Shown here: positions 2,806 through 62,836 of the stretch, in pieces | How positions within the stretch are numbered: position 1 is the first letter of the stretch | How the letters are laid out: every line of letters begins with the position of its first letter | Assembly (NCBI GenBank): GCA_018896525.1 | Contig: JAHIMR010000072.1 | Span: 32,718 to 96,717, forward strand | DNA: 64,000 bases | Direction of reading: 5' to 3' | Source: Actinomycetota bacterium | GTDB taxonomy: Bacteria > Actinomycetota > Geothermincolia > Fen-727 > Anoxymicrobiaceae | Notes under the pieces: model-generated | Database searches by the model: none | Told to the model about the DNA's origin: nothing | The model's input: the letters and a program-made list of their open reading frames with translations, nothing else | Position numbers and translations under genes: made by a program

Positions 2806-2829
2806 CCAGTGGGGTCAGGTGTTAGATAG

Positions 2830-3939: not shown

Positions 3940-5245
3940 GACTGCACTATTGCGCGCGGCGTTTGAAAAAAGTGAACTCCTGAGGGGTGAGGTGGCCGTA
4001 CCGGGAGACAAGTCCATCTCCCACCGGGCCGCGATAGTGGGTGCCGTCTGCCGCGGCGGGGTAACCGCGAGGGGGTTCAGCCCCGCAGATGACTGCTCCA
4101 GCACCTGCGAGGTGTTGCGGGAACTGGGGGTGAGGGTAGACCGGGCCCCGGGGAGGGTCTTGGTGGAGGGCCGGGGTGACACCGGTCTGGAGCAGCCGGT
4201 AGGCGCACTGGACGCCGGCAACTCCGGCACCACGATGAGGTTGCTTGCCGGTGTGCTGGCCGCCAGGCCGATGACGGTTACGCTGACCGGGGATGACAGT
4301 CTGCGGAAGCGCCCCATGACGAGGATCATCGAGCCGTTGAGAATGATGGGCGCAACAATCACCGGGGATGACGCCGAGGGGCATCCGCCGCTGAAGATAC
4401 AGGGGGGGGCGCTGGATGGCATCGAGTACTCACAGGCGGTCCCGAGCGCCCAGGTAAAATCGGCGATACTGCTGGCCGGGCTGGGGGCGAGCGGGAGAAC
4501 CGTCGTGCGTGAGAAGATACCCACTCGTGACCACACTGAGAGGCTTCTGGAGCGCATGGGGATAGAGGTGGTCCGTCGGGGGCTCTCGGTGGAGGTCGAG
4601 CCGGGTGTACCGAGCGGGTGCGACCTGGATATTCCCGGTGACCTGTCATCCGCGGCGTTTGTCATAACATTGGCGCTTATCTGTCCGAAGTCGGATATCA
4701 CCGTGAGGTCGGTGGGGCTGAACCCGACCAGAACCGGATTCCTGGACCTGGTAAGGCGAATGGGCGCCGATATCCTGGTAGACGTGGAGGATGACGGGTC
4801 GTGGGAGCCGGTGGGGGATATCAGGATAAGGCACTCTTCACTCGAGGGAATAGAGCTCACGGGGGAGGATGTGGCGGGCGCCATAGACGAGGTTACGCTG
4901 GTGGCGTTGCTGGCGACACAGGCGAAGGGCAGAACGGTGATAAGGGGAGCGGCGGAACTAAGGCATAAGGAATCCGACCGTATCGGTGGAACGGTACTGG
5001 GGCTGTCGGCGATGGGGGCTGATATACGGGAGACGGAGGACGGCATGGTCATCGAGGGTGGCCGTGCGCTTACCGGGGCCGACGTTTCGCCTGATCGGGA
5101 CCACCGGCTGGCGATGATGTTCGCGGTGGCCGGGATGGCGGCCGCTGGGAGAACCATAGTGAGCGACTGGGAATGTTCCGATGTATCTTACCCCGGCTTT
5201 CTGGAGGCGGTTCGCGGCCTCGGGGGAAGGGCGTTCCATGACTGA
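3881..5245 (+). CDS. aroA: 3-phosphoshikimate 1-carboxyvinyltransferase (EPSP synthase)
   Basis: LxGEVxVPGDKSISHRA N-terminal signature and full-length EPSPS similarity. The true start may be the in-frame TTG near 3950, just after the tyrA stop, rather than 3881. Confidence 0.9.
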   Translation: MRPGTGLSSWVTRPLFEKGRTALLRAAFEKSELLRGEVAVPGDKSISHRAAIVGAVCRGGVTARGFSPADDCSSTCEVLRELGVRVDRAPGRVLVEGRGDTGLEQPVGALDAGNSGTTMRLLAGVLAARPMTVTLTGDDSLRKRPMTRIIEPLRMMGATITGDDAEGHPPLKIQGGALDGIEYSQAVPSAQVKSAILLAGLGASGRTVVREKIPTRDHTERLLERMGIEVVRRGLSVEVEPGVPSGCDLDIPGDLSSAAFVITLALICPKSDITVRSVGLNPTRTGFLDLVRRMGADILVDVEDDGSWEPVGDIRIRHSSLEGIELTGEDVAGAIDEVTLVALLATQAKGRTVIRGAAELRHKESDRIGGTVLGLSAMGADIRETEDGMVIEGGRALTGADVSPDRDHRLAMMFAVAGMAAAGRTIVSDWECSDVSYPGFLEAVRGLGGRAFHD

Positions 5246-5924
5246 AGGCAGTGGAAGCCCGATAATCGCCATCGACGGGCCGGCGGCCTCGGGGAAGAGC
5301 ACGGTTGCGATCACACTTGCCAGGCGCCTGGACCTGCAGCTCGTGGATAGTGGGTCGATGTACCGAACGGTGGCGTTCCTTGCAATGGAGAGCCGGTGCG
5401 GCTCCACCGACGAAATGGCGGTTGGTGCTATCGCCCGAACGGTGCGAGCCGAGTACAGGGCGGAGTTACCCGGAGAAGGGCAGTTGAGGGTTTTCCTCGG
5501 TGAGCGAGATGTGACCGGGGAAATAAGGTCGGCCGAGGCCACCGGGGCGGTTTCCGACGTGTCGCGGATACCGGTGGTCAGGGAGGAGATGGTGGACCTG
5601 CAGCGGTCGATGGTTTCCCGGAGTGGAGCGGTTGTGGAGGGACGGGATATCGGGACAACCGTGTTCCCCGACGCGACCCTCAAGGTATTCCTGGAGGCGA
5701 CGGCAGGGGAGAGGGCCCGAAGGCGCTACCGGGAGTACAGGGAGAAGGGGATCGACGCGAACATCTCGGAGGTTGCCCGGCAGATAAGGAAGCGCGACGA
5801 GATAGACTCCTCGCGAGAGTCGAGCCCACTGGCGATCCCGGACGGTGCGTTGCTGATAGACACCACCGAGAAGACGGTTGCACAGGTGGTGGAGGAGATA
5901 GCGGAAGCCCTGGAAGACGTTTGA
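5238..5924 (+). CDS. cmk: Cytidylate kinase
   Basis: P-loop IIAIDGPAASGKST and cytidylate kinase body. ATG 5238 with GGGGGAAGG RBS, overlapping the aroA stop (translational coupling). The ORF-track start at 5181 is too long. Confidence 0.9.
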   Translation: MTEGSGSPIIAIDGPAASGKSTVAITLARRLDLQLVDSGSMYRTVAFLAMESRCGSTDEMAVGAIARTVRAEYRAELPGEGQLRVFLGERDVTGEIRSAEATGAVSDVSRIPVVREEMVDLQRSMVSRSGAVVEGRDIGTTVFPDATLKVFLEATAGERARRRYREYREKGIDANISEVARQIRKRDEIDSSRESSPLAIPDGALLIDTTEKTVAQVVEEIAEALEDV

Positions 5925-5959
5925 GGACGAAGGCTTGCCCCGATGTGCCCCCGCGTTTC

Positions 5960-8527: not shown

Positions 8528-8654
8528 GTTCACCTCTACACTCTATTCTTGGATTGATTGTAATCCCAACCATCCCTTCTTGCAAAAGCGGCCTGGTCCC
8601 TTCCTCGCCACCCAAAGGTGCCTTCATGGCCAACCAGTGGGGTCAGCGCCTTCA

Positions 8655-8689
8655 AATGACACCCTGGTGCCAGGCACCAGGGTGTCATT
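8655..8689. repeat. Perfect 35-bp palindromic element (AATGACACCCTGGTGCC-A-GGCACCAGGGTGTCATT), one of a family of four loci
   Basis: Read directly: 17-bp arms are exact reverse complements. The same architecture occurs at 24948-25016, 43742-43776 and 56995-57029. Confidence 0.8.
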
Positions 8690-8910
8690 ATGTGGCTTTT
8701 GTTTATTTGTGAGGGAAGGTTGGGTCAGCGGTTGTGTAATAGGGGAGGATGTCGTATTATCTCAGCGCTATCAGAGTAGAGGTAGAAGGCCGGTAATAGA
8801 AGGTGGTGGTGGGGTTCTAGAGAGGAACCGCGGAGTTTTTATCAAGCCCCGGGTCGCGGACAGGGGTTTTTTATTGAGATGGAGACAGGCCGATTGAAAG
8901 GAGAGGTCAG

Positions 8911-10221
8911 ATGGGAAGCAAGGAAGATCCGTACAGGGTTGTTTTGAGCGAGAACGAGATACCGGATGCGTGGTACAACATAATGCCGGACCTGCCGGTG
9001 CCTCCACCACCACCGATACACCCGGCGACCAGGGAGCCGTGCACCGCGGACGACCTGTTGCCGCTGTTCCCATTGGAACTGGTGAAGCAGGAGGTCAGCC
9101 AGGAGCGCTACATCGAGATTCCGGAGCCGGTAATGGACGTGTATAAGCTGTACCGACCCAGCCCGTTGCACAGGGCTTACCGACTGGAGAAAGAGCTGGA
9201 CACCCCGGCCAAGATATTCTACAAGAACGAGAGCTTGAGCCCCGCCGGGAGCCACAAGCCGAATACGGCCATACCACAGGCGTACTACAACAAGGCGGAG
9301 GGTGTCGAGCACCTGACCACCGAGACCGGCGCCGGCCAGTGGGGGAGCGCGCTCGCGCTCGGTTGCAAGCTGTTCGGGATTGACCTCGAGGTCTACATGG
9401 TGAAGATAAGCTACCAGCAGAAGCCGTACCGGCGTACCATGATAGAAACCTGGGGAGCGAAAGTATTCGCCAGCCCCACCGACAGGACCGAGGCCGGCAG
9501 GGCGATGCTGGCGGAGGACCCGGACTGCCCGGGAAGCCTGGGGCTCGCCATCAGCGAGGCGGTGGAGGCCTGCATGACCAGCGACAACACCAAGTACGCG
9601 CTGGGGAGCGTTCTCAACCACGTATGCATGCACCAGACCATAGTGGGCCTGGAGGCGAAGGCGCAGATGGAGAAGATAGACGAGTACCCGGACGAGGTTA
9701 TCGGGTGCGTGGGAGGCGGAAGTAACTACTCGGGCCTGGCTTTCCCGTTCATGAAAGACAAGTTCGATGGAAAGGAACTCCGCTTCATCGCGGTGGAGCC
9801 GGTTTCCTGCCCCACGTTGACCAAGGGCAAGTACGAGTACGACTTCGGCGACCAGGCGGAGACTACCCCTCTGCTGAAGATGTACACCCTGGGACACAAG
9901 TTCATCCCGTCACCCATTCACGCCGGGGGTCTTCGGTACCACGGCGACGCGCCGCTGCTGTCGCTGCTGGTGAATGAGGGGTACATGGACGCGGTGGCTT
10001 ACCGGCAGACGGAGGTGTTCGAGGCGGCGATGATGTTCGCCCGCACAGAGGGGATTATCATCGCCCCGGAGACCGCGCACTGCGTAAAGTACACAATTGA
10101 CGAGGCGCTGAAGTGCCGCGAGAGCGGAGAGAGCAAGACCTTGCTGTTCAACCTGAGCGGCCACGGCCTGCTGGACCTCAAGGGTTACGAGGAGTACCTG
10201 GCGGGGAACCTCGTAGACTAG
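8911..10221 (+). CDS. trpB: Tryptophan synthase beta-chain-like PLP enzyme, TrpB2 family (stand-alone, no trpA nearby)
   Basis: 436 aa with the TrpB2-type N-terminal extension, PLP-lysine motif ([13 protein letters not shown]), and GxGxWG and ISYQQKPY regions. AAAGGAGAGG RBS upstream of ATG 8911. Confidence 0.85.
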
Positions 10222-11120: not shown

Positions 11121-11156
11121 GCATCACCGCTAACTGACATGACCGGTATCAACTTA

Positions 11157-11319
11157 GCACCCCGCTCCATAAATACGCTGGCATTCGAACGCCGCTGCAT
11201 CCACTCCGGCTGCGTTCCGCTCCCTCGACGTACTCCAGGAGTACGACTCGGTCGCGCGCCTTGCCGGAGCGGCGCTTCGACGCTCTCGGTGCTCAACCGT
11301 ATTCATGGAACGAGGCACT
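11157..11319 (+). mobile_element. MITE copy 1 (~163-bp imperfect-palindrome element with TIRs; orientation A)
   Basis: Begins ACCCCGCTCCATAAATACGCTGGCATTCGAACGCC, has a central GTACTCCAGGAGTAC palindrome, and ends CGTATTCATGGAACGAGGCACT. Near-identical copies at 15004-15227, 30045-30290, 55112-55275 and 62673-62836. Confidence 0.85.
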
Positions 11320-11343
11320 TGAAGTAGATGTCTGTTATCATAG

Positions 11344-11644: not shown

Positions 11645-12126
11645 CCATAAGCGGTCCACGAGCAAACGCACAAAAGCAAAGCGTCCGGTAATCGTTACAG
11701 CAATTCAGTATCGCTAGATAAGCCGTGCTACGGAGAGCAAGCGGTCCACGAGCAAACGCACACAAGCAAGCGGTGTTGAAACATCTAAGCTGCTGCTACG
11801 GTGTGCAAACGGTCCACGAGCAAACGCACATGAGCAAAGCGTCCGGTAATCGTTACAGCAATTCAGTATCGCTAGATAAGCCGTGCTACGGAGAGCAAGC
11901 GGTCCACGAGCAAGCGCACACAAGCAAGCGGTGTTGAATCGTTACATCCATACATTATCGTGAGACAAGCAGAGCTACGGTGAGCAAGCGCAGCACGAGC
12001 AAACGCACACAAGCAAGCGGTGTTGAATCGTTACATCCATGCATTATCGTGAGACAAGCAGAGCTACGGTGAGCAAGCGCAGCACGAGCAAACGCACATG
12101 AGCAAACGGACGATACACATCTAAGC
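11645..12126. repeat. Complex tandem-repeat array: six copies of a 33-bp core (GCGGTCCACGAGCAAACGCACAMRAGCAAGCGG) embedded in higher-order ~161-bp (x2) and ~90-bp (x2) units
   Basis: Core copies at ~11650, 11740, 11808, 11898, 11985 and 12075. The inter-core segments are themselves repeated (11683-11739 matches 11841-11897; 11938-11984 matches 12029-12074). The array abuts the 3' end of tRNA-Leu. Confidence 0.85.
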
Positions 12127-12213
12127 TGGTGCCGAAGGCCGGACTCGAACCGGCACGGGGTTTTACCCCACTGGTTTTTGAGACCAGCGCGTATACCATT
12201 CCGCCACTTCGGC
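12127..12213 (-). tRNA. tRNA-Leu(CAA), class II with long variable arm, encoded CCA
   Basis: Reverse complement GCCGAAGTGGCGGAATGGTATACGCGCTGGTCTCAAAAACCAGTGGGGTAAAACCCCGTGCCGGTTCGAGTCCGGCCTTCGGCACCA. It folds as a cloverleaf with a 7-bp acceptor stem, anticodon loop CUCAAAA (anticodon CAA), variable stem GGGG/CCCC, T-loop TTCGAGT, and closely resembles E. coli leuX. Confidence 0.93.
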
Positions 12214-12295: not shown

Positions 12296-15010
12296 ATGGG
12301 GGCGAGTGTGGCTGAACAGAGAAAGGTCTTGCTGATAGATGGGCATAGCCTTGCCTACAGGGCCTTCTACGCACTTCCCGAAACGATGACTACCGCGGAC
12401 GGACAGCCGACCAACGCGGTCTTCGGATTCACCAGCATGCTGCTAAAGGTGATTGACGAGAAGAAGCCGGACGCTGTGATAGTGGCGTTTGACATCTCTC
12501 GCAAGGACCTGAAGCGGACACATGAGTACCCGGAGTACAAGGCGCACCGCCCGCCCATGCCGGACGAGCTTGGAACACAGATTTCGATGATCGGGGAACT
12601 GCTGGAGCATATGAGGATACCGGCCGTCAGGGCGCAGGGGCACGAGGCGGATGACGTCCTGGGGACCCTGGCGGATGAAGTAGCCGGCCGCGGAGATGAG
12701 GCGATAATCGTTACCGGTGACAGGGACACGCTTCAACTGGTGCGAGACGGGGTGACCGTGCTCATGACCGGGAAGGGGATAACCGAGACCCGGGAGTACG
12801 ACCGGGGCGCGGTTCAAGAGGAGTACGGGGTCCCGCCCGAGAAACTGCCGGAGATCGCCGGTCTCAAGGGCGACTCCTCCGATAATATCCCCGGGGTCCC
12901 GGGCATAGGCATAAAGGGCGCGTCGGCGCTTATCGGAAAGTACGGGTCGTTGGAGAACCTCTACGACCACCTGGAAGAGATAACAGGCCCCAAAAGGAAG
13001 CTATCCCTCGAGGAGAACCGGGAGCAGGCGTTCCTGTCCAGGCGGCTGGCCACTATCGAGAAGGCAGTGCCGGTCCGGCTCGATGTGGGCGAGGTGGAGT
13101 TGGAGACCTGGGATGCGGACGAGGTGCTCGAGTACCTGTCATCGCTCCAGTTCAAGAGGCTTGCCCGGAAGTTCGCCATGATGTACGGGGAGGAATCGGG
13201 TCCCCATGTGAGAGGTTCGGGTGAAGAGCTGCCATATACGGCGGTTCCCGGCGACCGGAAGTCGCTGAAGGAGTTCCTGTCGGGCGCGCGCGATGCCGGG
13301 GAGGTCGCGGTGGCCATCTCGCTCTCCGGGGAGGGTTACTGCGACCTCCGGCTGGAGGGGGCCGCTATAGCCACCGGAAACGCGGTACTGGTGGCCGCCG
13401 GGAGCGATGACGAACCCGCGATGGATGTAGTCGGCGACATCTTGCGCTCGCCGGAGATAGAGAAGTGGTTCCACGGTGCCAAGGAGGCGCTGGAAGCGCT
13501 GGATAAGAAGAAGATGACGGTACGCGGAGTGGCTTTCGACACCAAGGTGGCCGCCTATCTGAAGAACCCATCACTGGGGAAGTATGCTCTCGAGGATATC
13601 TGGGAGAGAAACGTGGGTGCCACGGTCCTGGTGGATGGCGAGTCGGTTCGGGTGCGTGAGCAGGAATCGTTGCTGGCCCCCGACGAGGGTGAGGAGCGGC
13701 TCCGGCTTGCATCCGAGGCGGCCCGTATCTTCAACCTGAAGCGGGTCATCGAAAGGGATATCACCGATCTGGGGATGGCGAGACTCTTCCGCGACATCGA
13801 GATGCCGCTTATCCTGGTGCTCAAGGGCATGGAGGAAACCGGTGTGGCCCTGGACGCGGAAGTGGTGGAGAGGCTGGCCGATGAGGCCGGCCTTGCTCTG
13901 GTGGAACTGAAGGAGGATATACACCGGCTGGCCGGGCATGAGTTCAACGTGAGTTCCACCAGGCAGCTTGGGCGCGTTCTTTTCGAGGAGATGGGTATTC
14001 CTCCAGTCAGGAAGACCAAGGCCGGGTTCTCCACCGACTCCACGGTATTGAGGTCATTGAAGGACGAGTGGGAGATAGCCGGTAAGGTTATCGCCTTCAG
14101 GGAAAACGCCAAGCTCAAGTCCACCTACTACGACACGTTGCCGCGTCTAGTCTGTCCTGAGAGCGGAAGGATACACTGCTCGTTCAACCAGACCGCCACC
14201 TCAACCGGGAGGATATCCTCGAGCAATCCAAACCTGCAGAATATTCCGGTGAGAACGGATGATGGCAGGCGGATCAGGAAGGCGTTCGTTCCCGGAGGGC
14301 CGGGATGGAAGATGCTGGTGGCCGACTACTCACAGATAGAGTTGAGGGTCCTTGCCCATATGTCGGGAGACGAGCGGATGATCGGCGCGTTTGCTTCCGG
14401 GGCCGATATTCACCGGCAGACCGCCGCGGAGATCTTTGGAGTCGAGGAAGGGGACGTCACCGACGACATGAGGCGGAAGGCCAAGGTGGTGAACTTCGGG
14501 ATAATCTACGGCATGGGCCGGTACGGGTTATCGTCCCGGATGGGGATATCGGTGGAACGGGCTACGGAGTACATCGAGGCGTATTTCATAAGGTACGATG
14601 GTGTACGGGAGTACAGAGAGAGGTGCGTAGCTGAAGCGGAGGAGAAGGGGTATGCGGAAACGCTTCTGGGGAGGCGAAGGCTTTTGCCCGAGCTGGCAAG
14701 CCCGAAGAGGCACACCAGGGAGCTGGGGGAGAGGTTGGCGGTAAACACGCCTATACAGGGGACCGCGGCGGATATCATCAAGAAGGCCATGAACGATGTT
14801 GCCTCCGCCATGGGGGAGGATGGGTTCCAGAGCCGGATGATCATGCAGATACACGATGAGCTCGTCTTTGACGTGGCACCCGGCGAGGGTGACGAACTTA
14901 GTACCCTGGTGGTGGGGCTTATGGCCGGGGTCCTCGACCTGCGAGTTGCCTTGAAGGTGGAGGCCGGCCTGTTCGATAACTGGGGACAGGCTAAGTACCC
15001 CGCTTCATAG
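12296..15010 (+). CDS. polA: DNA polymerase I
   Basis: 904 aa with a 5'-3' exonuclease N-terminus (LLIDGHSLAYRAFYAL), Klenow-like polymerase motifs A/B/C (DYSQIELR..., RRKAKVVNFGIIYG, QIHDELVFD). The last codons and stop lie inside the MITE terminus. Confidence 0.95.
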   Translation: MGASVAEQRKVLLIDGHSLAYRAFYALPETMTTADGQPTNAVFGFTSMLLKVIDEKKPDAVIVAFDISRKDLKRTHEYPEYKAHRPPMPDELGTQISMIGELLEHMRIPAVRAQGHEADDVLGTLADEVAGRGDEAIIVTGDRDTLQLVRDGVTVLMTGKGITETREYDRGAVQEEYGVPPEKLPEIAGLKGDSSDNIPGVPGIGIKGASALIGKYGSLENLYDHLEEITGPKRKLSLEENREQAFLSRRLATIEKAVPVRLDVGEVELETWDADEVLEYLSSLQFKRLARKFAMMYGEESGPHVRGSGEELPYTAVPGDRKSLKEFLSGARDAGEVAVAISLSGEGYCDLRLEGAAIATGNAVLVAAGSDDEPAMDVVGDILRSPEIEKWFHGAKEALEALDKKKMTVRGVAFDTKVAAYLKNPSLGKYALEDIWERNVGATVLVDGESVRVREQESLLAPDEGEERLRLASEAARIFNLKRVIERDITDLGMARLFRDIEMPLILVLKGMEETGVALDAEVVERLADEAGLALVELKEDIHRLAGHEFNVSSTRQLGRVLFEEMGIPPVRKTKAGFSTDSTVLRSLKDEWEIAGKVIAFRENAKLKSTYYDTLPRLVCPESGRIHCSFNQTATSTGRISSSNPNLQNIPVRTDDGRRIRKAFVPGGPGWKMLVADYSQIELRVLAHMSGDERMIGAFASGADIHRQTAAEIFGVEEGDVTDDMRRKAKVVNFGIIYGMGRYGLSSRMGISVERATEYIEAYFIRYDGVREYRERCVAEAEEKGYAETLLGRRRLLPELASPKRHTRELGERLAVNTPIQGTAADIIKKAMNDVASAMGEDGFQSRMIMQIHDELVFDVAPGEGDELSTLVVGLMAGVLDLRVALKVEAGLFDNWGQAKYPAS

Positions 15011-15227
15011 ATACGGTTAAGCACCGAGAGCGTCGAAGCGTCGCTCCGGCAAGGCGCGCGACTCAGTGCCTCGTTCCATAGATACGGTTAAGCACCGAGA
15101 GCGTCGAAGCGCCGCTCCGGCAAGGCGCGCGACCGAGACGTACTTCCTTAGTACTTCGAGGGAGTGGAACGCAGCCGGTGTGGATGCGGCGGCGTTCGAA
15201 TGCCAGCGTATTCATGGAGCGGGGTAC
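15004..15227 (-). mobile_element. MITE copy 2 (orientation B) with an extra ~60-bp tandem partial copy of its left end overlapping the polA stop
   Basis: The 15004-15064 half-copy (CATAGATACGGTTAAGCACCGAGAGCGTCGAAGCG...) is followed by the full element 15065-15227, which ends ...CGTATTCATGGAGCGGGGTAC. Confidence 0.85.
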
Positions 15228-15360
15228 TGAATAAGGGGCCCGGACGCACGGTCCAGGGCACGCGTTATACAGATGCAAACCTACCTGATGGCAACTTGCG
15301 GCGATATTACGTATGTGCTATTCATAATAACGTACGTGTTCACGAGAGGGAAGGAAAACC

Positions 15361-23085: not shown

Positions 23086-24983
23086 GAAAAGGGATCGAGG
23101 CCAGGTTGAAGGCGTTACCCGACGTCCCGGGCGTCTATGTTTTTCGAGACGGGGAAGGCAGGGTCATATACGTCGGTAAGGCCAGGTCACTGCGTGACAG
23201 GGTGAGGTCTTACTTCCGGGGACCGGCCGCCGGCGATTACAAGGGTGAAGCGCTCAGGGGTGAGATCTCGGACCTGGAGGTTACCGTCTGTGACAGCGAG
23301 GTCGATGCGCTCATCCTCGAGGAAACGCTGATCAAGAGGCATCAGCCGCGCTTCAACGTCTTGTTGAAGGACGACAAGAGCTATCCCTTCATCGCGGTCA
23401 CCGTCTCCGACGAGTTCCCCCGTGTGATGTTGTTCAGGGGAAAGCGAAAGCGAGGGGTAAAGTATTACGGACCTTACGTGAGCGCGGGGGCCGCCAGGAG
23501 AACGATGCGCCTGCTGGAGAGGATATTTCCGCTCCGGCACTGCCGGGGAAAGGACCCGGGGAAGAGTGGTGGATCACCGTGTCTGTACAGGGACATGGGC
23601 CTCTGCCTTGGGCCGTGCACCGGCGACGTGGACCCCGGCGAGTACGGGCGTTACGTGGAGATGTTCACCGATTTTCTGGAGGGGAGGCACCGGGACGTGT
23701 TGCGGGACCTGGATGCCCGCATGTGGGAGGCCTCGCGCAAACAGGAGTACGAGAGGGCCGCCCGGATCCGCAACCAGATACAGTCGGCCGAGGAGGTCCT
23801 GGCGCACCGCCGATCGGTATCCTCCTCGAGTGGCGACTACGATGTCATCGGCGTGCATACCGACAGGGAGCGGGCCTGCTTCTCGGTGGCCAGGAACAGG
23901 GGCGGCTTTCATATAGGGAACCTCTGCTTCTTTAACGAACTGCCGGGCGATACCGGGGACGGGGAACTGGTATGCGAGTTCGTGAAGCGATACTACGGCC
24001 GGTCCGATTCGATACCGGAGCAGATACTGGTCCCTGAAGTGGCGGAGGATGAAGCCGCGTTGAGCCAGTGGCTGTCGATAATGAGGGGCGCCAGGGCGGT
24101 AATCAGGGTGCCGGAAAGGGGCCCGAAGATGGGAGAGCTCTCCCTGGCGGAGGCGAACGCCAGGGTCGCCCTGGAGGGCGCCGATATTACCAGGGCCGGG
24201 GACAGGGAGCGTATTGAGGCGGCGCTCTCGGAGCTTGCCGAGGGACTTGGTCTATCCCGGTTTCCCTTGAGGATAGAGTGCTACGACATATCCACGATGG
24301 GGGGGGCCGCCTCCGTCGGGTCAATGGTGCTGTTCGTGGAAGGCTTCCCGGCAAGGCGCGCTTATAGAAGGTACCGCATCAAGTTCACCCCGGGCATCGA
24401 TGACGTGGGAATGATGAAAGAGGTCCTGTACCGCAGGTTCAAGAGGTTTGGCAGTGAGAGTGTGGAGGACGGCGACAGTGAAGTGGAAAAGGAATCAACG
24501 CTGGGGGAAAAGCCGGACCTGGTTCTGCTGGATGGTGGGGTGGGACAGCTCGGAGCGGGACGGGAAGTCCTGGATGACCTGGGAATCGAGGGTGTGGACA
24601 TCGCCGCCCTTGCCAAGAGGTTCGAAGAGGTATATCGCCCGGGTCGCCCGGAGCCGGTGCTGCTTCCCAGGGGGTCTGAGGCGCTCTTTCTTCTCCAGCG
24701 TATAAGAGACGAGGCGCATCGCGTGGCGGTGAGCTACCACCGGTCGCTTATGGAGAAGGCGACCGCGGACTCGTGGCTGGACCAGGTGGCGGGCGTGGGG
24801 CCGGCAAGAAAAAAGAGATTGGTGAGGCACTTCGGATCCCCCGGAAAAGTGAGCAGGGCGTCCCTGGAGGAGTTGGAATCGGCGGGCATCCCCGCGAAAG
24901 TGGCGGAAGCGGTGTTCGAGGCGGCCCGGAGCCTCGAGAGGGAGAGAAATGACGCAGTGGTGCCTGGCACCGGTGGTGCATAA
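23082..24983 (+). CDS. uvrC: Excinuclease ABC subunit C
   Basis: GIY-YIG N-terminus ([22 protein letters not shown]), UvrBC-binding and RNase H-like endonuclease domains, and C-terminal HhH. Its last ~11 codons are formed by a palindromic repeat element. Confidence 0.93.
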
Positions 24984-25016
24984 TGACGCAGTGGTGCCAG
25001 GCACCGGTGGCGCATT
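24948..25016. repeat. Tandem pair of degenerate palindromic-family elements (AATGACGCAGTGGTGCCWGGCACCGGTGGYGCAT x2) spanning the uvrC stop codon
   Basis: Direct 34-bp duplication read in sequence. It shares the GGTGCCWGGCACC core and AATGACGCA left arm with the 43742 and 56995 palindromes. The first copy encodes the uvrC C-terminus. Confidence 0.7.
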
Positions 25017-25069
25017 ATGTAACGTGCGGGGTCGTCTGCTGATATAGTTATGGCGTTGGGCCCCAACGG

Positions 25070-30044: not shown

Positions 30045-30290
30045 CCGTCTCATAAATACGGTGAAGCACCGAGAGCGTCGGTGCGCCGCGCCGGCAAGGC
30101 GCGCGACCGAGTCGTACTCCTGGAGTACGTCGAGAGAGCGGAACGCAGCCGGAGTGGATGCAGCGGCGTTCGAATGCCAGCGTATCTATGTAGCGGGGTA
30201 CCTAGCGTACTCACTGAGTACGTCGCAGGGAGCGGAACGCAGCAGGAGTGGATGCAGCGGCGTTCGAATGCCATTGTATTTGTGAGACGG
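30045..30290 (-). mobile_element. MITE copy 3 (orientation B) plus a ~88-bp tandem partial duplication of its right half
   Basis: The full unit 30045-30201 runs CATAAATACGGTGAAGCACCGAGAGCG...CGTATCTATGTAGCGGGGTAC. The half-copy 30203-30290 repeats the central palindrome and right arm (GTACTCACTGAGTAC...GAATGCCATTGTATTTGTG). Confidence 0.85.
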
Positions 30291-30333
30291 GACACTAGAG
30301 ATTGATTCCAATTGGTTTCGGAGGAGACGGTAG

Positions 30334-55099: not shown

Positions 55100-55111
55100 A
55101 GGGGAGTAACA

Positions 55112-55275
55112 AGTGCCTCGTTCCATAGATACGGTTAAGCACCGAGAGCGTCGAAGCACCGCTCCGGCAAGGCGCGCGACCGAGTCGTACTCTTGGAGTA
55201 CGTCGAGGGAGCGGAACGCGACCGGAGTGGATGCAGCGGCGTTCGAATGCCAGCGTATTTATGGAGCGGGGTGCT
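55112..55275 (-). mobile_element. MITE copy 4 (orientation B) between lspA and lgt
   Basis: AGTGCCTCGTTCCATAGATACGGTTAAGCACCGAGAGCG...GTACTCTTGGAGTAC...CAGCGTATTTATGGAGCGGGGTGCT. It begins 13 nt after the lspA stop and overlaps the putative lgt start. Confidence 0.85.
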
Positions 55276-56049
55276 AAGACTGTGCACCGGGTGCTATTCA
55301 ACATAGGGAATCTAACGGTCTACTCCTATGGAGTGTTCCTGGCCCTGGGGTTTGTGACGGCGACCATTGTAGCCAGGCGGCGGCTTGCCGAGACCTTCCG
55401 TAACCCTGACATAATCCTTGACCTGGTGCTGGCGGCGGTTGTCGGCGGCATAGCGGGGGCGCGGATCTGCTACATCATAGGGCACTGGTCGTACTACATG
55501 GCCAACAAGGGCGAGATATTGAAGCTCAACATGGACGGGCTGGTGTTCTATGGAGGGCTCCTGCTGGGGTTTGTGCTTGCCGTGCTGGTGGGAAGGTGGA
55601 GGAACGTCAGGTTCTGGGAGGTCATGGACCTGGGCGGGCTGAGCGTTCCCATCGCGCTGGGGGTCGGCAGGATAGGTTGCCTGCTGAACGGATGCTGTTA
55701 CGGGAAGCAGACCTCTCTGCCGTGGGGAATAACGTATCCCGCGACCACCGGCCTGGCAGGCCCCAGGCATCCAACCCAGGTGTACGAGTTACTACTGGAC
55801 CTCGCCCTGTTCGCTTTCCTGTGGTCCAAGAGGGACAGCTGGGAGAGGGATGGCACGTCGTTCTGGTTGTTCGTGATGGGGTACGCGGCCATTCGGTTCA
55901 CAATGGAGTTCTTCCGCGAGCATACCCTTTCCAACGCCGCACTGACTTTCCAGATGGTCAGCGTTGCACTTTTCCTGGTGGCGGGGGCGGTTCTGCTGCT
56001 CCGGTACCGGCTCCTGCCGGAGACCGGCGACAGGGGCCTGCCACTCTGA
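55261..56049 (+). CDS. lgt: Prolipoprotein diacylglyceryl transferase
   Basis: Lgt signature (GGLLLGFVLAVLVGRW..., RIGCLLNGCCYGK). The start is uncertain: ATG 55261 lies in the MITE terminus, and GTG 55291 is an alternative. The ORF-track start 55231 is inside the MITE. Confidence 0.88.
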   Translation: MERGAKTVHRVLFNIGNLTVYSYGVFLALGFVTATIVARRRLAETFRNPDIILDLVLAAVVGGIAGARICYIIGHWSYYMANKGEILKLNMDGLVFYGGLLLGFVLAVLVGRWRNVRFWEVMDLGGLSVPIALGVGRIGCLLNGCCYGKQTSLPWGITYPATTGLAGPRHPTQVYELLLDLALFAFLWSKRDSWERDGTSFWLFVMGYAAIRFTMEFFREHTLSNAALTFQMVSVALFLVAGAVLLLRYRLLPETGDRGLPL

Positions 56050-57029: not shown

Positions 57030-58043
57030 TTAGACGCTGCGGCCGATGATGGAGGCGATGGCACTTAACTTGCTCATCATTGAATCGAACTGCCCGAGGG
57101 TAAGCGCCTGCGGACCATCGCAGAGGGCGCAGTCGGGGTCGGGATGGACCTCGACCATGATTCCATCAGCGCCGGCGGCCACCGCGGCGAGAGACATGGG
57201 CTCGACAAGATAGGAGAAACCGGTTGAGTGCGATGGGTCAACCACTACCGGCAGGTGAGAGAGTCGCTTGATAACCGGCACCGCGGAGAGGTCGAGGGTG
57301 TTCCTTGTTTTGGTCTCGAAAGTAGTGATTCCGCGTTCGCAGAGGATGACATCGCGGTTTCCCTCGATAATCACGTACTCCGCGGCGAGGAGGAGGTCTT
57401 TCACCGTGGCGCTGGGCCCCCGCTTCAACATGACCGGGTGACCGCTTCTTCCCACCTCGGTAAGCAGGACGAAGTTCTGCATGTTGCGGGCCCCAACCTG
57501 GAGGATATCGGCGTACTCGCAGACAAGTTCCACGTTGCGGGGGTCGGTAACCTCGGTGATGATCGGGAGGCCGGTCTCATCGCGGGCGCGGGCCAGCAGT
57601 TCCAGGGCCTCTTCGCCAAGGCCCTGGAAGGAGTAGGGGGATGTACGGGGCTTGTAGGCCCCTCCCCTGAGCACCCGGGCGCCGCTCCTCTTCACGCTGA
57701 GAGCGATCTCCATCAACTGCTTCTCGTTCTCGACCGCACAAGGGCCGGCGATGACCGTCACGTCGACGCCGCCGAACTTCACACCTCTGACATCTATGAC
57801 CGTGGGATCCGGATGGGCTTCCCGCCCGGCGAACTTGTACGGTTGCAGGATGGGGATGATGCTCTCCACCCCGGGAAGGCCCTGCATGTTCTCCACGACC
57901 CTGGTCTTATCGTCGCCGACTATACCGATGACCGTCTTCTGAACGCCGTAAATAGGGTGCGTGCGCAGTCCGTATGAGTGGACCTTCTCGATAACGCTTT
58001 CGACCTGTTCCTCCGTCGCCTGCGACGACATTACTATTATCAT
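57030..58043 (-). CDS. aroF: DAHP synthase type I-beta, second paralog (with N-terminal FL regulatory domain)
   Basis: Same architecture and motifs as the 1789-2805 gene (GPCAVENE, KPRTSPYSFQGLGEE, MLKRGPSAT, VVVDPSHSTG). By eye the two proteins are paralogs at roughly 55% identity. Confidence 0.9.
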   Translation of the reverse strand: MIIVMSSQATEEQVESVIEKVHSYGLRTHPIYGVQKTVIGIVGDDKTRVVENMQGLPGVESIIPILQPYKFAGREAHPDPTVIDVRGVKFGGVDVTVIAGPCAVENEKQLMEIALSVKRSGARVLRGGAYKPRTSPYSFQGLGEEALELLARARDETGLPIITEVTDPRNVELVCEYADILQVGARNMQNFVLLTEVGRSGHPVMLKRGPSATVKDLLLAAEYVIIEGNRDVILCERGITTFETKTRNTLDLSAVPVIKRLSHLPVVVDPSHSTGFSYLVEPMSLAAVAAGADGIMVEVHPDPDCALCDGPQALTLGQFDSMMSKLSAIASIIGRSV

Positions 58044-58104: not shown

Positions 58105-59100
58105 TCATATTAGCCCGTTTATACTGTTCTTATCAATAGTTTCATCGGCCTCACCCCAGGTGAGAACGCCATCTTCGTCCATGTAGGCCACGCCACGGCT
58201 ACCGCCAACCCTGTCAAGCGAGTGCTTGCTGAGGTAGCCCTCCACGATTCCCTTGAGGCCTTCGATCCTGGAGAGACAGTTCGCGACCTGTTTGTGGGTC
58301 GCAACAAGCTCGTCCACCGCCTGTCCGACGTCCAGTGGCGGCGCGGCGGGCCTGCGAGCGGGCGGCGGGTTATCTTTCAACAGAGGGCACTCCCCAAGGA
58401 AATCGCACCAGGGGCACAGACTGTTCTCACAAGGATCAAAATGCTCCGCCTCAATGGACCTGACCACATCCTTTATCTCTTCCAGCGCCCTCCGGGCACG
58501 ATCGGGAGTCACCTGGAGAGTGTGGCGGTGATTCATCAGCAGGTAGTGGAACGTTACCTTCTCCGGTGCGATATCCCATATCCTCCCGGCTGCTATGTGA
58601 TAGATGGTAAGCTGAAGGTCCTTCTCGAGCCTCCACGCAGGCGGCAGGCGGCGGTTGGTCTTGTAGTCGATTATCTCGAACCCGCCTTCCGGGTCCTTGT
58701 CCAGGCGGTCTATGACCCCGCTCAGCTCGCAGATCCCGACGTCAATCTTGAACCTGTGTTCCAGCGCAGCGGGAACGCGGAAATCCCCCGCGTACTTACG
58801 GTAGTAGATCTCCAGGGCGGATTTCGCCTGGCAGAAGTACTTTGTCTCCTCCTCGGGAGAGCTATAACCGTCGCTGGACCAGCACTGATCAAGGTAATCC
58901 AGGAGGTCGGGGAGCGGGCAGGGGTCGGGTGTGGGGACCGAATAGAACCACTCCAGCGCCTTATGCAGGCTGTTTCCGAAGCTGAGGGCGGGACTCGGCA
59001 ACGCGGGCCTGCCATCGACGTACCTGAGGCGATACTGAAGCGGACAGGTCTCATACGAAGATATCGCGCTATAGCTCAGTTTCAAGCTCATCCTCCCCAT
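58105..59100 (-). CDS. Cas4-like PD-(D/E)XK nuclease with Fe-S cysteine staple (1 N-terminal plus 3 C-terminal Cys) and ~95-aa C-terminal extension
   Basis: N-terminal Cys (ETCPLQYRLRY), nuclease motifs (GVIDRLD..., EIIDYKT, QLTIYHIAAG), C-terminal C-x4-C-x2-C-x5-C (CENSLCPWCDFLGEC). The start is probably MGRMSLKL.../MSLKL... (about 59091-59100) rather than 59184. No cas genes or CRISPR nearby. Confidence 0.75.
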   Translation of the reverse strand: MGRMSLKLSYSAISSYETCPLQYRLRYVDGRPALPSPALSFGNSLHKALEWFYSVPTPDPCPLPDLLDYLDQCWSSDGYSSPEEETKYFCQAKSALEIYYRKYAGDFRVPAALEHRFKIDVGICELSGVIDRLDKDPEGGFEIIDYKTNRRLPPAWRLEKDLQLTIYHIAAGRIWDIAPEKVTFHYLLMNHRHTLQVTPDRARRALEEIKDVVRSIEAEHFDPCENSLCPWCDFLGECPLLKDNPPPARRPAAPPLDVGQAVDELVATHKQVANCLSRIEGLKGIVEGYLSKHSLDRVGGSRGVAYMDEDGVLTWGEADETIDKNSINGLI

Positions 59101-59165
59101 GTCAGCGGTCCTTGTTAAGATAATTACACAACTGGTGGCGATTTCCTTATGAGAACCATGATAAC

Positions 59166-62100
59166 GTGAAGGAGAACGCCACAACCCAAAGAAATATTAT
59201 AAGGTCGCCAGGGAGCCGGGAGATTAATTTGTCACAGGAGTTTGTTCATCTCCATTTGCATACCGAGTATTCCATTCTGGATGGCGCCTGCCGGATAAGC
59301 GAAGCGCTCGAGGCCGCCCGGGAGATGGGAATGGACTCCCTGGCGATAACCGACCACGGGGTCATGTACGGGGTCCTGGAGTTTTACCAGAAGGCGCTCA
59401 AGCACGATATGCGCCCTATACTCGGCGTAGAGGTGTACGTGGCTCCCCGGGGGAGGCTTTCCCGCGCCGGGGGCATGGAGGAGCGGCCGAACCACCTGAT
59501 CCTGATCGCGGAGAACAACACCGGGTACGAGAACCTTATGCGTATCGTCACCAGGGGTTTCACCGAGGGCTTCTACTACAAGCCCAGGGTCGACAAGGAG
59601 GTCCTCACCGAGCACAGCGAAGGCCTGATTGCGCTAAGCGCCTGCCTGAAAGGGGAGATACCGGTCGCCCTACTGGCCGGGGATGACGCCCTGGCGGCAA
59701 CTGTCGCGGACGAGTACCTGCGAATCTTCGGTGAAAATAACTTCTACATCGAACTGATGAACCACGGCATAGAGGAACAGGTCCGCGTGAACCCGATGCT
59801 GGTGGAGTTCGCCCGCGGGAAGGGCATCGGACTGGTGGCCACCAACGACATCCATTATGTAAAGCCCGAGGACAGCAAGGCCCACGACTATCTTCTGTGC
59901 ATCCAGACCGGAAAACTGCTGGCCGAGCAGTCTCGCATGAGATTCTCCACCGAGGAGTTTTATATGAAGTCCCCCGACCAGATGGCGGACCTTTTCCCCG
60001 ATTTCCCCGAGGCGCTGTCGAACACGGTTGATATAGCATCGCGATGCAACGTGGAAATCCCGCTGGATACCGTCTATCTGCCCCGTTACGACCCGCCGGA
60101 GGGTTACGATCTGGATTCCTTCCTGGAGCACCTGGCGCTCGAAGGAGTCGAAGAGCGCTTCACCGAGATATCCGTGGAGGTCACACAGCGGCTGGAGAAG
60201 GAGCTGAAAATCATACAGGAGTTGGGGTTTTCCGGCTACTTCCTTATCGTATGGGATTTCGTGAAGTACGCCAAGGAAAAGGGGATAAAGGTGGGGCCGG
60301 GGAGAGGATCGGCGGCCGGAAGCCTGGTCGCCTACGCCCTGGGGATTACCACTATCGACCCACTCAAGTACGGGTTGCTGTTCGAGCGTTTCCTCAACCC
60401 GGAGAGGATAGCGCTTCCCGATATCGACATCGATTTCAGCCACGACAGGCGGTCGGAGGTCATAGAGTACGTTGGCAACAAGTACGGGAAGGACAGGGTT
60501 GCACAGATAATATCGTTTTCCCGGCTGAACACGCGGGCGGCGGTGAAGGATGTGGGCAGGGTCATGGACATCCCGTACGCCCGGATGGATACATTATCCA
60601 AGATGGTTCCCGAGGATCCAAAGATGAACATCGAGCTGGCACTGAAGCAGAGCAGCGAACTCAGGAACGCTTACGAAAACGATAAGGAGGTCCGGGAGAT
60701 AGTCGACACCGCCCGGAGCCTGGAGGGCCTGGTCAGGCACGACACCATCCACGCGGCGGGCGTGGTGATAGCCGACAACGAGCTGAATAAGTACACACCA
60801 CTCCAGCGAAAAGGCGGCGACGATTCGGAGGTCGTGACCCAGTACGACATGTACAATATCGAGAACCTGGGCTTGCTTAAGGTGGACCTGCTGGGCTTGA
60901 GGAACCAGAGTCTCCTGGAGCTCGCGGTCAACCTCATCAACGACAGGTATGGCGGGGAGCTCGAAATAGACAGCATTCCCATGGATGACCCTGAGACGTT
61001 CAAGCTTGTGCAGAGGGGCGAGACGGTAGGGACGTTCCAGCTCGCCAGCCCGGGCATGAGGGCGCTGATGAGAGACCTGGTGCCGACCAGGTTCGAGGAG
61101 ATCATCGCGCTGATAGCGCTATACAGGCCGGGCCCCCTTTCCAGTGACATGCACAAGGTGTTCGTGGAGCAGAAGCATGGGCGAAAGGCGGTGAGTTATC
61201 CCCACCCGTCCCTGGAGGAAGTGCTGAAGGAAACCTACGGAGTGATCGTCTACCAGGAGCAGGCGATGCGGATATCACAGGTGCTTTCCGGATACTCGGG
61301 GCTGGAGGCGGACCAACTCAGGAAGGCGATGGCCAAGAAGCAGGAAGATAAGATGGCCGAACACCGGGATAAGTTCATCGGGGGCGCCTGCGACAGGGGA
61401 GTGGAAAAGATTGTCGCCACCCGGGTCTTCGACCTGATCGAGAAGTTCGGCGGTTACGGCTTCAACAAGTCTCACAGCACCGCCTACGCGTTTGTGTCGT
61501 ACCAGACCGCGTACCTCAAGGCCCACTACCCGTCAGAGTACATGGCCGCGCTCATGACCATCTACATGGATAACCAGGACCGGTTGGTGGAGTACATCAA
61601 CGAGTGCCGGCGGATGGGCCTGGAGGTCAGGCTGCCGGACATAAACAAGAGCGACGGTAACTTCACCCCGTTCGATAAGTATGTCCTTTTCGGGTTGTCA
61701 GCGGTAAAGAACGTCGGCACAGCGGTGGTGGAACAGATAATCAAAGCCCGTGATGAGGGCGAGGAGTTCAAGAGTTTCATGGAGTTTTGCGACCGTGTCC
61801 CGGCGTCGGTGACCAACAAGAAGACGCTGGAGAGCTTTATCAAGGCCGGCGCGTTCGACACGATAGAGGCAGACAGAAGCCGGCTCCTGGCTACCTACGA
61901 TGTGGCCGTGAGTATCGCCCAGCGCAAGAGGAGGGAGAAGGAGGAGGGGCAGTTCTCACTGTTCGATGACTCCAACGACGTGGATGACGTGTCCAGTGGC
62001 GGGCTTCCCGACGATTACACCGAGATACCGAAGAGGCAGTTGCTGGCCTGGGAAAGGGAGATGCTGCGGGTTTTCGTCAGCGACCATCCGCTGACCGACT

Positions 62101-62672
62101 ACCGGGAACTGCTGTCGGGTTTTACCGATATCGAGATATCCCAGATATCAAAGGATATGGACAAGGCGGTGTTGACCATCGGCGGCCTTATTACCGGGCT
62201 GGAGAAGCGGTATAACAAGGCGGGGAAGCCGTGGGCGAGCTTTACGCTGGAGGATTTCTCGGGATCGATGGACGTGCTGCTGTTCCACCACAAGTACGAG
62301 AAGTTCGCCGATGCGCTCTCGGAAGACGCTATAGTACTGGTCAAGGGGAGGGTGGACCTCAAGGACAGCTCACGGAAGCTGCTGGCGGACGAGGTACGGT
62401 TACTTCCCAGGAACTCGATGCGTCCTACCCACCTGGTGCTCAAGATAGACGCCGCCTGGTTTACCGAGGATAGGACCTCGCAGGTGCAGGAGGTCCTGAT
62501 GCAGCATCCCGGGGAGTTGCAGGTGTACTTTCAGCTGTACGAGAACGGTGAGGAAACGACCACCGTTAGATTGGGGGATTTATACTCGGTGGGGACGGAC
62601 AGTGACGTTCTGGGCAAGCTCAGGGCGCTTCTCGGGGAGTCCGCGGTGGCCCTGGAGTACCCGGAGATCTGA
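59166..62672 (+). CDS. dnaE: DNA polymerase III alpha subunit (DnaE1-type)
   Basis: PHP domain (HLHLHTEYSILDGA), polymerase core, OB fold. Start GTG 59166 (AAGGAG RBS) or TTG 59227. Its stop is immediately followed by a MITE. Confidence 0.95.
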   Translation: MKENATTQRNIIRSPGSREINLSQEFVHLHLHTEYSILDGACRISEALEAAREMGMDSLAITDHGVMYGVLEFYQKALKHDMRPILGVEVYVAPRGRLSRAGGMEERPNHLILIAENNTGYENLMRIVTRGFTEGFYYKPRVDKEVLTEHSEGLIALSACLKGEIPVALLAGDDALAATVADEYLRIFGENNFYIELMNHGIEEQVRVNPMLVEFARGKGIGLVATNDIHYVKPEDSKAHDYLLCIQTGKLLAEQSRMRFSTEEFYMKSPDQMADLFPDFPEALSNTVDIASRCNVEIPLDTVYLPRYDPPEGYDLDSFLEHLALEGVEERFTEISVEVTQRLEKELKIIQELGFSGYFLIVWDFVKYAKEKGIKVGPGRGSAAGSLVAYALGITTIDPLKYGLLFERFLNPERIALPDIDIDFSHDRRSEVIEYVGNKYGKDRVAQIISFSRLNTRAAVKDVGRVMDIPYARMDTLSKMVPEDPKMNIELALKQSSELRNAYENDKEVREIVDTARSLEGLVRHDTIHAAGVVIADNELNKYTPLQRKGGDDSEVVTQYDMYNIENLGLLKVDLLGLRNQSLLELAVNLINDRYGGELEIDSIPMDDPETFKLVQRGETVGTFQLASPGMRALMRDLVPTRFEEIIALIALYRPGPLSSDMHKVFVEQKHGRKAVSYPHPSLEEVLKETYGVIVYQEQAMRISQVLSGYSGLEADQLRKAMAKKQEDKMAEHRDKFIGGACDRGVEKIVATRVFDLIEKFGGYGFNKSHSTAYAFVSYQTAYLKAHYPSEYMAALMTIYMDNQDRLVEYINECRRMGLEVRLPDINKSDGNFTPFDKYVLFGLSAVKNVGTAVVEQIIKARDEGEEFKSFMEFCDRVPASVTNKKTLESFIKAGAFDTIEADRSRLLATYDVAVSIAQRKRREKEEGQFSLFDDSNDVDDVSSGGLPDDYTEIPKRQLLAWEREMLRVFVSDHPLTDYRELLSGFTDIEISQISKDMDKAVLTIGGLITGLEKRYNKAGKPWASFTLEDFSGSMDVLLFHHKYEKFADALSEDAIVLVKGRVDLKDSSRKLLADEVRLLPRNSMRPTHLVLKIDAAWFTEDRTSQVQEVLMQHPGELQVYFQLYENGEETTTVRLGDLYSVGTDSDVLGKLRALLGESAVALEYPEI

Positions 62673-62836
62673 GTACCCCGCTCCATAGATACGCTGGCAT
62701 TCGAACGCCGCTGCATCCACTCCGGCTGCGTTCCGCTCCCTCGAAGTACTACAGGAGTACGTACTCGGTCGCGCGCCTTGCCGGAGCGGCGCTTCGACGC
62801 TCTCGGTGCTTAACCGTATCCATGGAACGAGGCACT
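62673..62836 (+). mobile_element. MITE copy 5 (orientation A) starting at the nucleotide after the dnaE stop
   Basis: GTACCCCGCTCCATAGATACGCTGGCATTCGAACGCC...GTACTACAGGAGTAC...CGTATCCATGGAACGAGGCACT. Confidence 0.85.

Follow-up and report, generated by a model that had tools for sequence, protein, structure and literature searches.

A Stand-Alone RecB/AddB-Type Nuclease with Four Invariant Cysteines Is Encoded Divergently from dnaE in Deep-Branching Actinomycetota

The Nuclease Gene and Its Conserved Residues

We analyzed a 64-kb stretch of DNA (the window) on contig JAHIMR010000072.1 of an Actinomycetota bacterium of the Anoxymicrobiaceae. The gene under study lies on the minus strand and encodes a nuclease of the PD-(D/E)XK type. 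It is oriented divergently to dnaE, the gene for the alpha subunit of DNA polymerase III (Pol III), and is followed on its own strand, after a gap of 61 nt to the ATG at 58043, by a gene for a second DAHP synthase (DAHPS). This arrangement had been described correctly in an earlier reading of the sequence without database searches (the sequence-only reading). The window is a housekeeping region, with polA, rpsA, uvrB, uvrA, uvrC, rapZ, whiA, gap, pgk, nusA, infB, pnp, ftsK, cinA, ileS, lspA, lgt, and rluD among its genes. The coordinates of all features are listed in Table 1.

The open reading frame (ORF) 58105–59184 on the minus strand is intact, and its stop codon is at 58105–58107. The sequence-only reading had let the coding region begin at ATG 59100, and ATG 59091 is a further in-frame start. 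The TTG at 59085 is the likely start codon, since a GGAGG sequence is present 6 nt upstream of it and since the N-terminus "MKLSYS", which begins there, is found in the 96%-identical homolog P0001 and in nearly all other homologs. The protein would then have 326 rather than 331 residues. Residue numbers in this work are counted from the ATG at 59100. The GC content of the gene is the same as that of the neighboring dnaE.

An alignment of 23 diverse homologs with 41–81% identity to the query showed that C19, C229, C232, C238, D131 (within "GVIDRLD"), E142, D145, K147, Q163, and Y167 are invariant. The D...EIIDYK and QxxxY motifs and the N-terminal cysteine named in the sequence-only reading were thus confirmed, while its "C-x4-C-x2-C-x5-C" has to be shortened: the first cysteine of this element, C224 (codon 58429–58431), was not conserved. 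The remaining pattern of candidate cluster ligands, one N-terminal cysteine plus a C-terminal CxxCx5C, is the canonical C...CxxCx5C.

Table 1. Coordinates of the nuclease gene, its neighbors, and repeated elements in the 64-kb window.
Feature	Position	Strand	Basis or remark
Nuclease coding sequence	58105..59085	(-)	ORF list; 326 residues from TTG 59085, 331 residues from ATG 59100
RecB/AddB-type PD-(D/E)XK nuclease core, residues ~6–240	58381..59085	(-)	
Cys19 codon, N-terminal ligand of the presumed 4Fe-4S cluster	59044..59046	(-)	Invariant in alignment
C229-x2-C232-x5-C238, three C-terminal cysteines of the presumed cluster	58387..58416	(-)	Invariant columns
Catalytic motif D131 ... E142-I-I-D145-Y-K147 (RecB-like "GxID...DYK")	58660..58710	(-)	Invariant
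Q163-x3-Y167 motif	58600..58614	(-)	Invariant
Conserved C-terminal domain, residues ~241–320	58141..58380	(-)	AlphaFold2 pLDDT 79–91, conserved columns
Unconserved last 11 codons	58108..58140	(-)	pLDDT <50 for residues 321–331
Divergent intergenic region nuclease/dnaE	59086..59228	.	Sequence, alignment with L002–L009
dnaE (Pol III alpha), divergent neighbor	59229..62672	(+)	TTG with GGGAG Shine-Dalgarno sequence, "MSQEFVHLH" N-terminus
Second DAHP synthase, type I-beta with N-terminal FXD domain	57030..58043	(-)	PF00793 + PF18152, NF006421
DAHPS promoter-like element CTATTGATA-18-TAATAT	TTGATA 58136-58131, TAATAT 58112-58107	(-)	Promoter scan
Intergenic repeat copies	11153-11321(-), 15065-15228(+), 30051-30201(+), 55110-55279(+), 62668-62836(-)		
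Partial intergenic repeat copies	14991-15062, 30200-30291		

Family and Fold of the Nuclease

The protein matched the PF12705 profile (PDDEXK_1) over its full length (residues 7–239 against profile positions 1–247 of 247) with 131.3 bits, compared to a cut-off of 22, and an E-value of 7e-38. At the superfamily level, the previous assignment to the Cas4/AddB-type Fe-S PD-(D/E)XK nucleases was therefore right. The phage family phrog_69 ("exonuclease") was matched with an E-value of 7e-28. DUF2800 (PF10926, phage Cas4-like nucleases; cut-off 21 bits) gave no match to the window protein at E ≤ 1; two relatives exceeded its cut-off, L072 with 29.7 bits and P0145 with 22.1 bits. A family scan of the 326-residue protein found no helicase domain, and the protein does not have the architecture of AddAB, AdnAB, or RecBCD.

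The AlphaFold2 model built on the alignment had a mean predicted local distance difference test (pLDDT) value of 89.5 and a predicted template modeling score of 0.79. It consists of the nuclease core up to about residue 240, a linker rich in Pro and Arg, a long helix (258–292) with three strands (297–317), and 11 disordered residues at the end. In structural comparisons, the highest figures were obtained for the nuclease domains of AdnA (21.5) and AdnB (20.5), followed by Dna2 (18.4), ACE1, an Argonaute-associated enzyme of the Cas4 family (17.3), Cas4 (about 14), MGME1 and Exo5 (12–13), and AddB (11.2). All these proteins aligned with the core only. The nearest structural relatives are hence AdnAB and Dna2 and not Cas4, and the top PDB matches by sequence were also the nuclease domains of AdnB and AdnA (E about 0.02). 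We concluded that the nuclease is a stand-alone, presumably Fe-S-binding member of the structural class comprising RecB, AddB, AdnAB, Dna2, and Cas4, but not a Cas4 protein in the strict sense.

The mycobacterial AdnA and AdnB proteins and AddB of Bacillus have the same RecB-type motifs GxID...DYK and QxxxY as the window nuclease, and AdnB and AddB also share its cysteine staple with one N-terminal and three C-terminal residues. Unlike these enzymes, the window nuclease, with about 326 residues, stands alone: it has no fused UvrD-like helicase or motor and no gene for a partner subunit nearby, and it carries an additional C-terminal helix/beta domain that is absent from AdnAB and AddAB. Compared to Cas4, its core is larger, the tail is extra, and a CRISPR-cas context is lacking. 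Dna2, the replication flap nuclease of eukaryotes and archaea, is an Fe-S PD-(D/E)XK nuclease that threads single-stranded DNA. It shares only 14% sequence identity with the window protein, which differs from it by the lack of a helicase domain. The likeness to Dna2 makes a link to replication suggestive given the pairing with dnaE, a role for the window protein that is read from synteny alone.

Pfam and COG already contain the family (PDDEXK_1, DUF2800, COG2887), and the database annotation is generic. Steczkiewicz et al. (2012; PMC3424549) placed DUF2800, PDDEXK_1, and COG2887 in group 63 of their classification as "RecB-like, probable prophage proteins". Two relatives had other domain compositions. 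The metagenomic protein P0076 (554 residues) comprises two complete PDDEXK_1 Fe-S nuclease domains in tandem without a DUF7376-type tail (see below). An Elusimicrobia metagenome-assembled genome (MAG; L077, 7989-9755) encodes a protein of 588 residues in which GAF and GGDEF (diguanylate cyclase) domains are joined to a homologous PDDEXK_1 Fe-S nuclease domain, an unusual combination of nuclease and signaling modules.

A Conserved C-Terminal Domain

The C-terminal extension had been taken as unique and without an obvious family, and neither statement was borne out. A total of 509 homologs were found at E ≤ 1e-3, and most of the 120 listed cover 91–98% of the query. Within the tail, V262 and E264 are invariant in the 23-sequence alignment and L282 and G300 nearly so. 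Only the last approximately 11 residues are not conserved; even P0001, with 96% identity, departs from the window protein there. The homologs fall into two length classes, a short form of about 315–330 residues, to which the window protein belongs, and a long form of about 375 residues with a helical insert between the strands.

DUF7376 (PF24091) matched the window tail weakly, with 20.2 bits (cut-off 27 bits). Higher scores were reached by homologous tails: 28.7 bits for the long-form protein P0105, 32.5 bits for P0125, and 41.4 bits for L072, a homolog from Moranbacteria within the candidate phyla radiation (CPR). Six of 12 long tails matched DUF7376 at E < 0.01. The same region is matched by phrog_2362, a family with no assigned function. 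PF22709 was matched weakly by the tail, and all matches of the Gam/Gp157 type were below the Pfam cut-off. The window tail thus weakly matches a DUF7376/phrog_2362-like, Gp157-like domain, of which it would represent the short form.

A profile of the long tail, searched against 1.84 billion representative sequences, retrieved 253 clusters. Most of the listed matches have 350–410 residues, with the tail at the C-terminus. Ten matches were scanned for other domains. In six of them, a nuclease domain precedes the tail, five of these being N-terminally truncated; three others are short proteins without a detected nuclease domain, and one is a fusion to aldehyde dehydrogenase. As judged from these sequences, the tail appears to occur almost always behind this nuclease domain.

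Among the viral models (BFVD) matched by Foldseek were PD-(D/E)XK nucleases from Tsukamurella phage TIN4 and Arthrobacter phage KellEzio. The tail model resembled many phage proteins of 120–160 residues, one of which is annotated as Siphovirus Gp157, with E-values of 1e-4 to 6e-6. By tblastn, the nuclease of Rhodococcus phage Mbo2 covers 93% of a long-form protein; its gene sits in a module with genes for a beta-clamp, RusA, and WhiB. The "Cas4-family" or "RecB-like" exonucleases of these three actinophages have the same architecture of nuclease plus DUF7376/Gp157-like tail. The window gene differs from them in being chromosomal and syntenic with dnaE instead of part of a phage module, and identity is only about 26–28%. 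In contrast to the actinophage/DUF2800 group, the window protein has the short tail without the helical insert and no DUF2800 match. A relation of the tail to Siphovirus Gp157 and Mu Gam-like proteins is tentative, and DNA-end binding by the window tail is putative. Genes for Gp157 and Gam hold equivalent positions in phage recombination modules (PMC8093625).

Pairing with dnaE Is Conserved in Deep-Branching Actinomycetota

A synteny survey with one genome per species detected relatives of the nuclease at no fewer than 475 loci, and the best 80 loci were compared. These were mostly from MAGs of deep-branching Actinomycetota, including Geothermincolia, Anoxymicrobiaceae, Solincola, and Solirubrobacterales. 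A group of relatives with about 30% identity stems from Patescibacteria, "Bdellovibrionales", and Elusimicrobia.

The dnaE gene was divergent and directly adjacent in 59 of the 62 actinomycetotal loci that hold both genes, with spacers of about 120–370 bp (median about 160 bp). If the loci L001, L017, and L059 are included, where no dnaE lies within the more than 6 kb available upstream, pairing was found in 59 of 65 testable loci. It was kept down to a nuclease identity of about 41%. The identities of nuclease and DnaE to the respective window proteins co-varied strongly (r = 0.88, n = 57 loci), which is consistent with joint vertical descent of both genes. The position between dnaE and rluD is shared by about 60 relatives, and the conserved context is dnaE on one side and rluD-lspA-ileS on the other. 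This opposite flank varies: rluD lies anywhere from 0 to 7 kb away, and the distant clade has an ileS that differs in type and orientation. The dnaE adjacency, mentioned only in passing in the sequence-only reading, is therefore really conserved, and the idea that the gene could be a housekeeping repair nuclease conserved in this lineage was supported by the number of loci, their context, and the co-variation with DnaE.

L001 (4586-5756), a Geothermincolia MAG and the nearest of the GTDB representatives, has a frameshifted transposase-like ORF with a HARWLIEN motif and unrelated genes in place of dnaE upstream of the nuclease, which suggests a rearrangement mediated by an insertion sequence. 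Homologs of 370–385 residues with PDDEXK_1, DUF7376, and DUF2800 matches are present in Patescibacteria-type MAGs of the CPR (L068, L071, L072, L075; ~5700-10200). There, they lie beside and divergent from genes for an Rrf2 regulator, a cysteine desulfurase (IscS), and the Fe-S assembly protein NifU/IscU, and in L068 and L072 a gene for a PolB-exonuclease-like 3'-5' exonuclease is located near the nuclease.

The Divergent Spacer

The TTG at 59229 is more probably the start codon of dnaE than the GTG at 59166 from the mechanical ORF list, as judged from the features given in Table 1, and the spacer between both genes therefore comprises 143 bp. On the nuclease strand, a -10-like sequence TGTGTAATTA is present at about 59133-59124 and aligns with the conserved TATAATCA of relatives. 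The dnaE strand has AAGGAGA at about 59169-59175 and TATTATAAG at about 59195-59203. Both genes have a conserved promoter-like core of their own in close relatives, namely TATAATCA for the nuclease and AGGAAA-N~17-TATAAT on the dnaE strand.

No LexA, Cheo, or RecA-NDp motif was found in the window spacer. Regulation by the SOS system or by PafBC was also considered for the relatives and rejected: 60 spacers contained no Cheo-type LexA box, and there were only scattered matches to the actinobacterial LexA motif with three mismatches and one chance RecA-NDp match.

The spacers of the distant clade with the long form of the protein (loci L008–L079) share the conserved core AAACCTGTGGAT..CTTACAnGCTTGTAATTC-N13-TAnACT. 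This core is strongly conserved and contains back-to-back TTGTAA hexamers. The DnaA-box-like 9-mer TTATCCACA occurred with at most one mismatch in 35 of 60 spacers, compared to about 1.2 in shuffled sequences, and without mismatch in 8 spacers, compared to 0.035 expected; the kinship of the loci inflates both counts. In the distant clade, these DnaA-box-like sites are often paired at a distance of 11 bp; they are absent from the spacers of the window and its close relatives.

The Neighboring DAHPS Gene

The sequence-only reading had regarded the nuclease as apparently co-operonic with the DAHPS gene. The window contains two DAHPS genes with 58% identity between their products. The first (1789-2802) heads an aro operon at 1789-5245 (DAHPS, prephenate dehydrogenase, EPSP synthase) and is the DAHPS of the pathway; the second is a solitary copy between nuclease and rluD, and its N-terminal FXD domain is a regulatory one. 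A DAHPS gene was present at this position only in L001, L002, L005, L007, and L009, i.e., in 5 of 69 actinomycetotal loci. It was absent there from L003, L004, L006, and all of the approximately 55 more distant loci. The gap between both genes is 120–261 nt in the relatives. In L001, L005, and L009, it contains a conserved promoter-like element upstream of DAHPS, cTATTGAT(A/G)-N17/18-TAC(C/G)AT/TAT, and in L002 a hairpin repeat is inserted. The corresponding element of the window (Table 1) overlaps the unconserved last codons of the nuclease gene. No terminator-like hairpin was found between nuclease and DAHPS in the window, and read-through is therefore possible. The comparison of the loci indicates that the DAHPS neighborhood is a recent lineage-specific insertion without functional meaning.

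A Probable Housekeeping Nuclease for DNA Ends or Flaps

In our judgment, the gene probably encodes a vertically inherited, stand-alone housekeeping nuclease that processes ends or flaps of single-stranded DNA in connection with replication or recombination, and it is neither a Cas4 protein nor the relic of a defense system. Conserved divergent gene pairs are usually co-regulated. The link to replication is proposed since such pairs tend to share their regulation and since the phage relatives are located in replication and recombination modules.

AdnAB, AddB, Dna2, and Cas4 are the paradigms from which the following mechanism is adopted. The four-cysteine, presumably 4Fe-4S, cluster would fasten the N-terminal helix to the end of the core and help to form a channel. 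A single-stranded DNA end or flap could be threaded through this channel to a two-metal PD-(D/E)XK site, in which D131, D145, and K147 would act together with E142, Q163, and Y167 in a metal-dependent manner, and would then be degraded or trimmed; substrate and polarity are assigned by analogy. The tail most likely provides oligomerization or contacts to partners or DNA ends. The nuclease may thus act in replication-linked processing of ends or flaps or in recombinational repair, and its expression would be coordinated with that of the replicase.

Several points weigh against this interpretation. The window harbors polA with an intact 5'-3' exonuclease domain, so that the need for a separate flap nuclease is not evident. 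The relatives outside the Actinomycetota are not adjacent to dnaE, and the window spacer contains no DnaA box even if two mismatches are allowed. The adjacency to dnaE could reflect neutral retention of the old actinobacterial order ileS-lspA-rluD...dnaE. Binding of a 4Fe-4S cluster by the four cysteines is presumed from their conservation alone, and a literature search for characterized members of the family gave only inventory tables and the superfamily classification of 2012.

A general exonuclease for double-strand breaks or recombination, possibly a phage recombination nuclease domesticated long ago, whose place beside dnaE would be a frozen ancestral order without a regulatory or functional tie to replication, is an alternative that we regard as doubtful but take seriously. 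It would account for the shared architecture with phage proteins encoded in recombination and replication modules, the "probable prophage" label of the family, the location of relatives outside the Actinomycetota, and the absence of a DnaA box from the window spacer. What speaks for the proposed tie to replication is that the divergent junction was kept in 59 of 65 loci while the other flank was remodeled, with ileS replaced or inverted, that the spacers contain conserved promoter cores, joined in one clade by phased DnaA-box-like sites, and that conserved divergent pairs are as a rule co-regulated. A much more specific role appears improbable to us: a dedicated replisome accessory of deep-branching Actinomycetota, which as a helicase-less bacterial analog of Dna2 would share a bidirectional promoter with Pol III alpha, controlled by DnaA in the sister clade, would act on 5' flaps, the ends of reversed forks, or primer remnants, and would dock to DNA ends or a replisome partner by its Gp157-like tail.

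The remaining explanations concern the two associations suggested by the sequence-only reading. A functional operon of nuclease and DAHPS paralog that links a DNA enzyme to aromatic biosynthesis is very unlikely. Both genes are on the same strand with a short gap and no terminator-like hairpin, and the adjacency recurs in five close relatives; against this stand its absence from L003, L004, L006, and about 55 distant loci, the longer gaps with a TTGAT(A/G)-N17/18 promoter-like element, the hairpin repeat of L002, and the separate pathway enzyme in the aro operon. Least probable of all is a solo Cas4 or the remnant of a defense or mobile module. Structural likeness to Cas4 and ACE1 exists, and there are weak matches to Cas4 models, but TIGR00372 scored 32.7 bits with a curated cut-off of 65 and PF01930 18 bits with a curated cut-off of 22.7. 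The PADLOC search with the nuclease gave nothing beyond generic Cas4 models (≤36.8 bits) and DruK (E 0.015). No CRISPR-like array was found in the 64-kb window, and the scan of the 20 other large ORFs revealed neither a cas gene nor a helicase-nuclease subunit nor defense partner genes, in agreement with what the sequence-only reading had stated on cas genes, CRISPR arrays, and recBCD/addAB partners. The GC content that matches dnaE, the housekeeping synteny conserved over class-level divergence, and the closer structural relation to AdnAB and Dna2 likewise argue against a defense origin. Widespread homologs with no defense association and a DAHPS adjacency that is not conserved, which the sequence-only reading itself had named as grounds to abandon its view, are essentially what we found.

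For annotation, this means that the label "Cas4" and a count as a defense gene should both be avoided for this gene. The family is widespread, occurring in at least 475 species-level genomes, among them reduced CPR genomes, and in actinophages, with all catalytic and cluster residues intact. In the early-branching Actinomycetota, a group without tractable models, chromosome replication may be linked to a stand-alone nuclease of the presumed Fe-S type. The only points of mild novelty are the conserved position next to dnaE and the phased DnaA-box-like sites found in the spacers of one clade; they provide a testable lead.

Repeated Elements in the Window

An intergenic repeat of about 165–170 bp is present in at least five copies in the window, which are 91–96% identical (Table 1). 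One copy is located just past the dnaE stop codon and one between lspA and lgt. Its predicted fold is one long hairpin that is almost perfect (-99 kcal/mol, z = -7.9), and Rfam contains no match to it. It looks like an element of the miniature inverted-repeat transposable element (MITE) or repetitive extragenic palindromic (REP) type. In the Anoxymicrobiaceae locus L002 (~6850-7000), the hairpin repeat that separates nuclease and DAHPS is a related copy.

Two tandem repeats were also observed. An 89-bp unit with about 3.5 copies (86% matches) is located upstream of polA at 11649-12109, with weaker copies extending back to 11649, and adjoins a tRNA gene at 12130-12213(-). A 34-bp unit with 2.1 copies (92% matches) is present at 24948-25019, at the 3' end of uvrC, immediately in front of rapZ.

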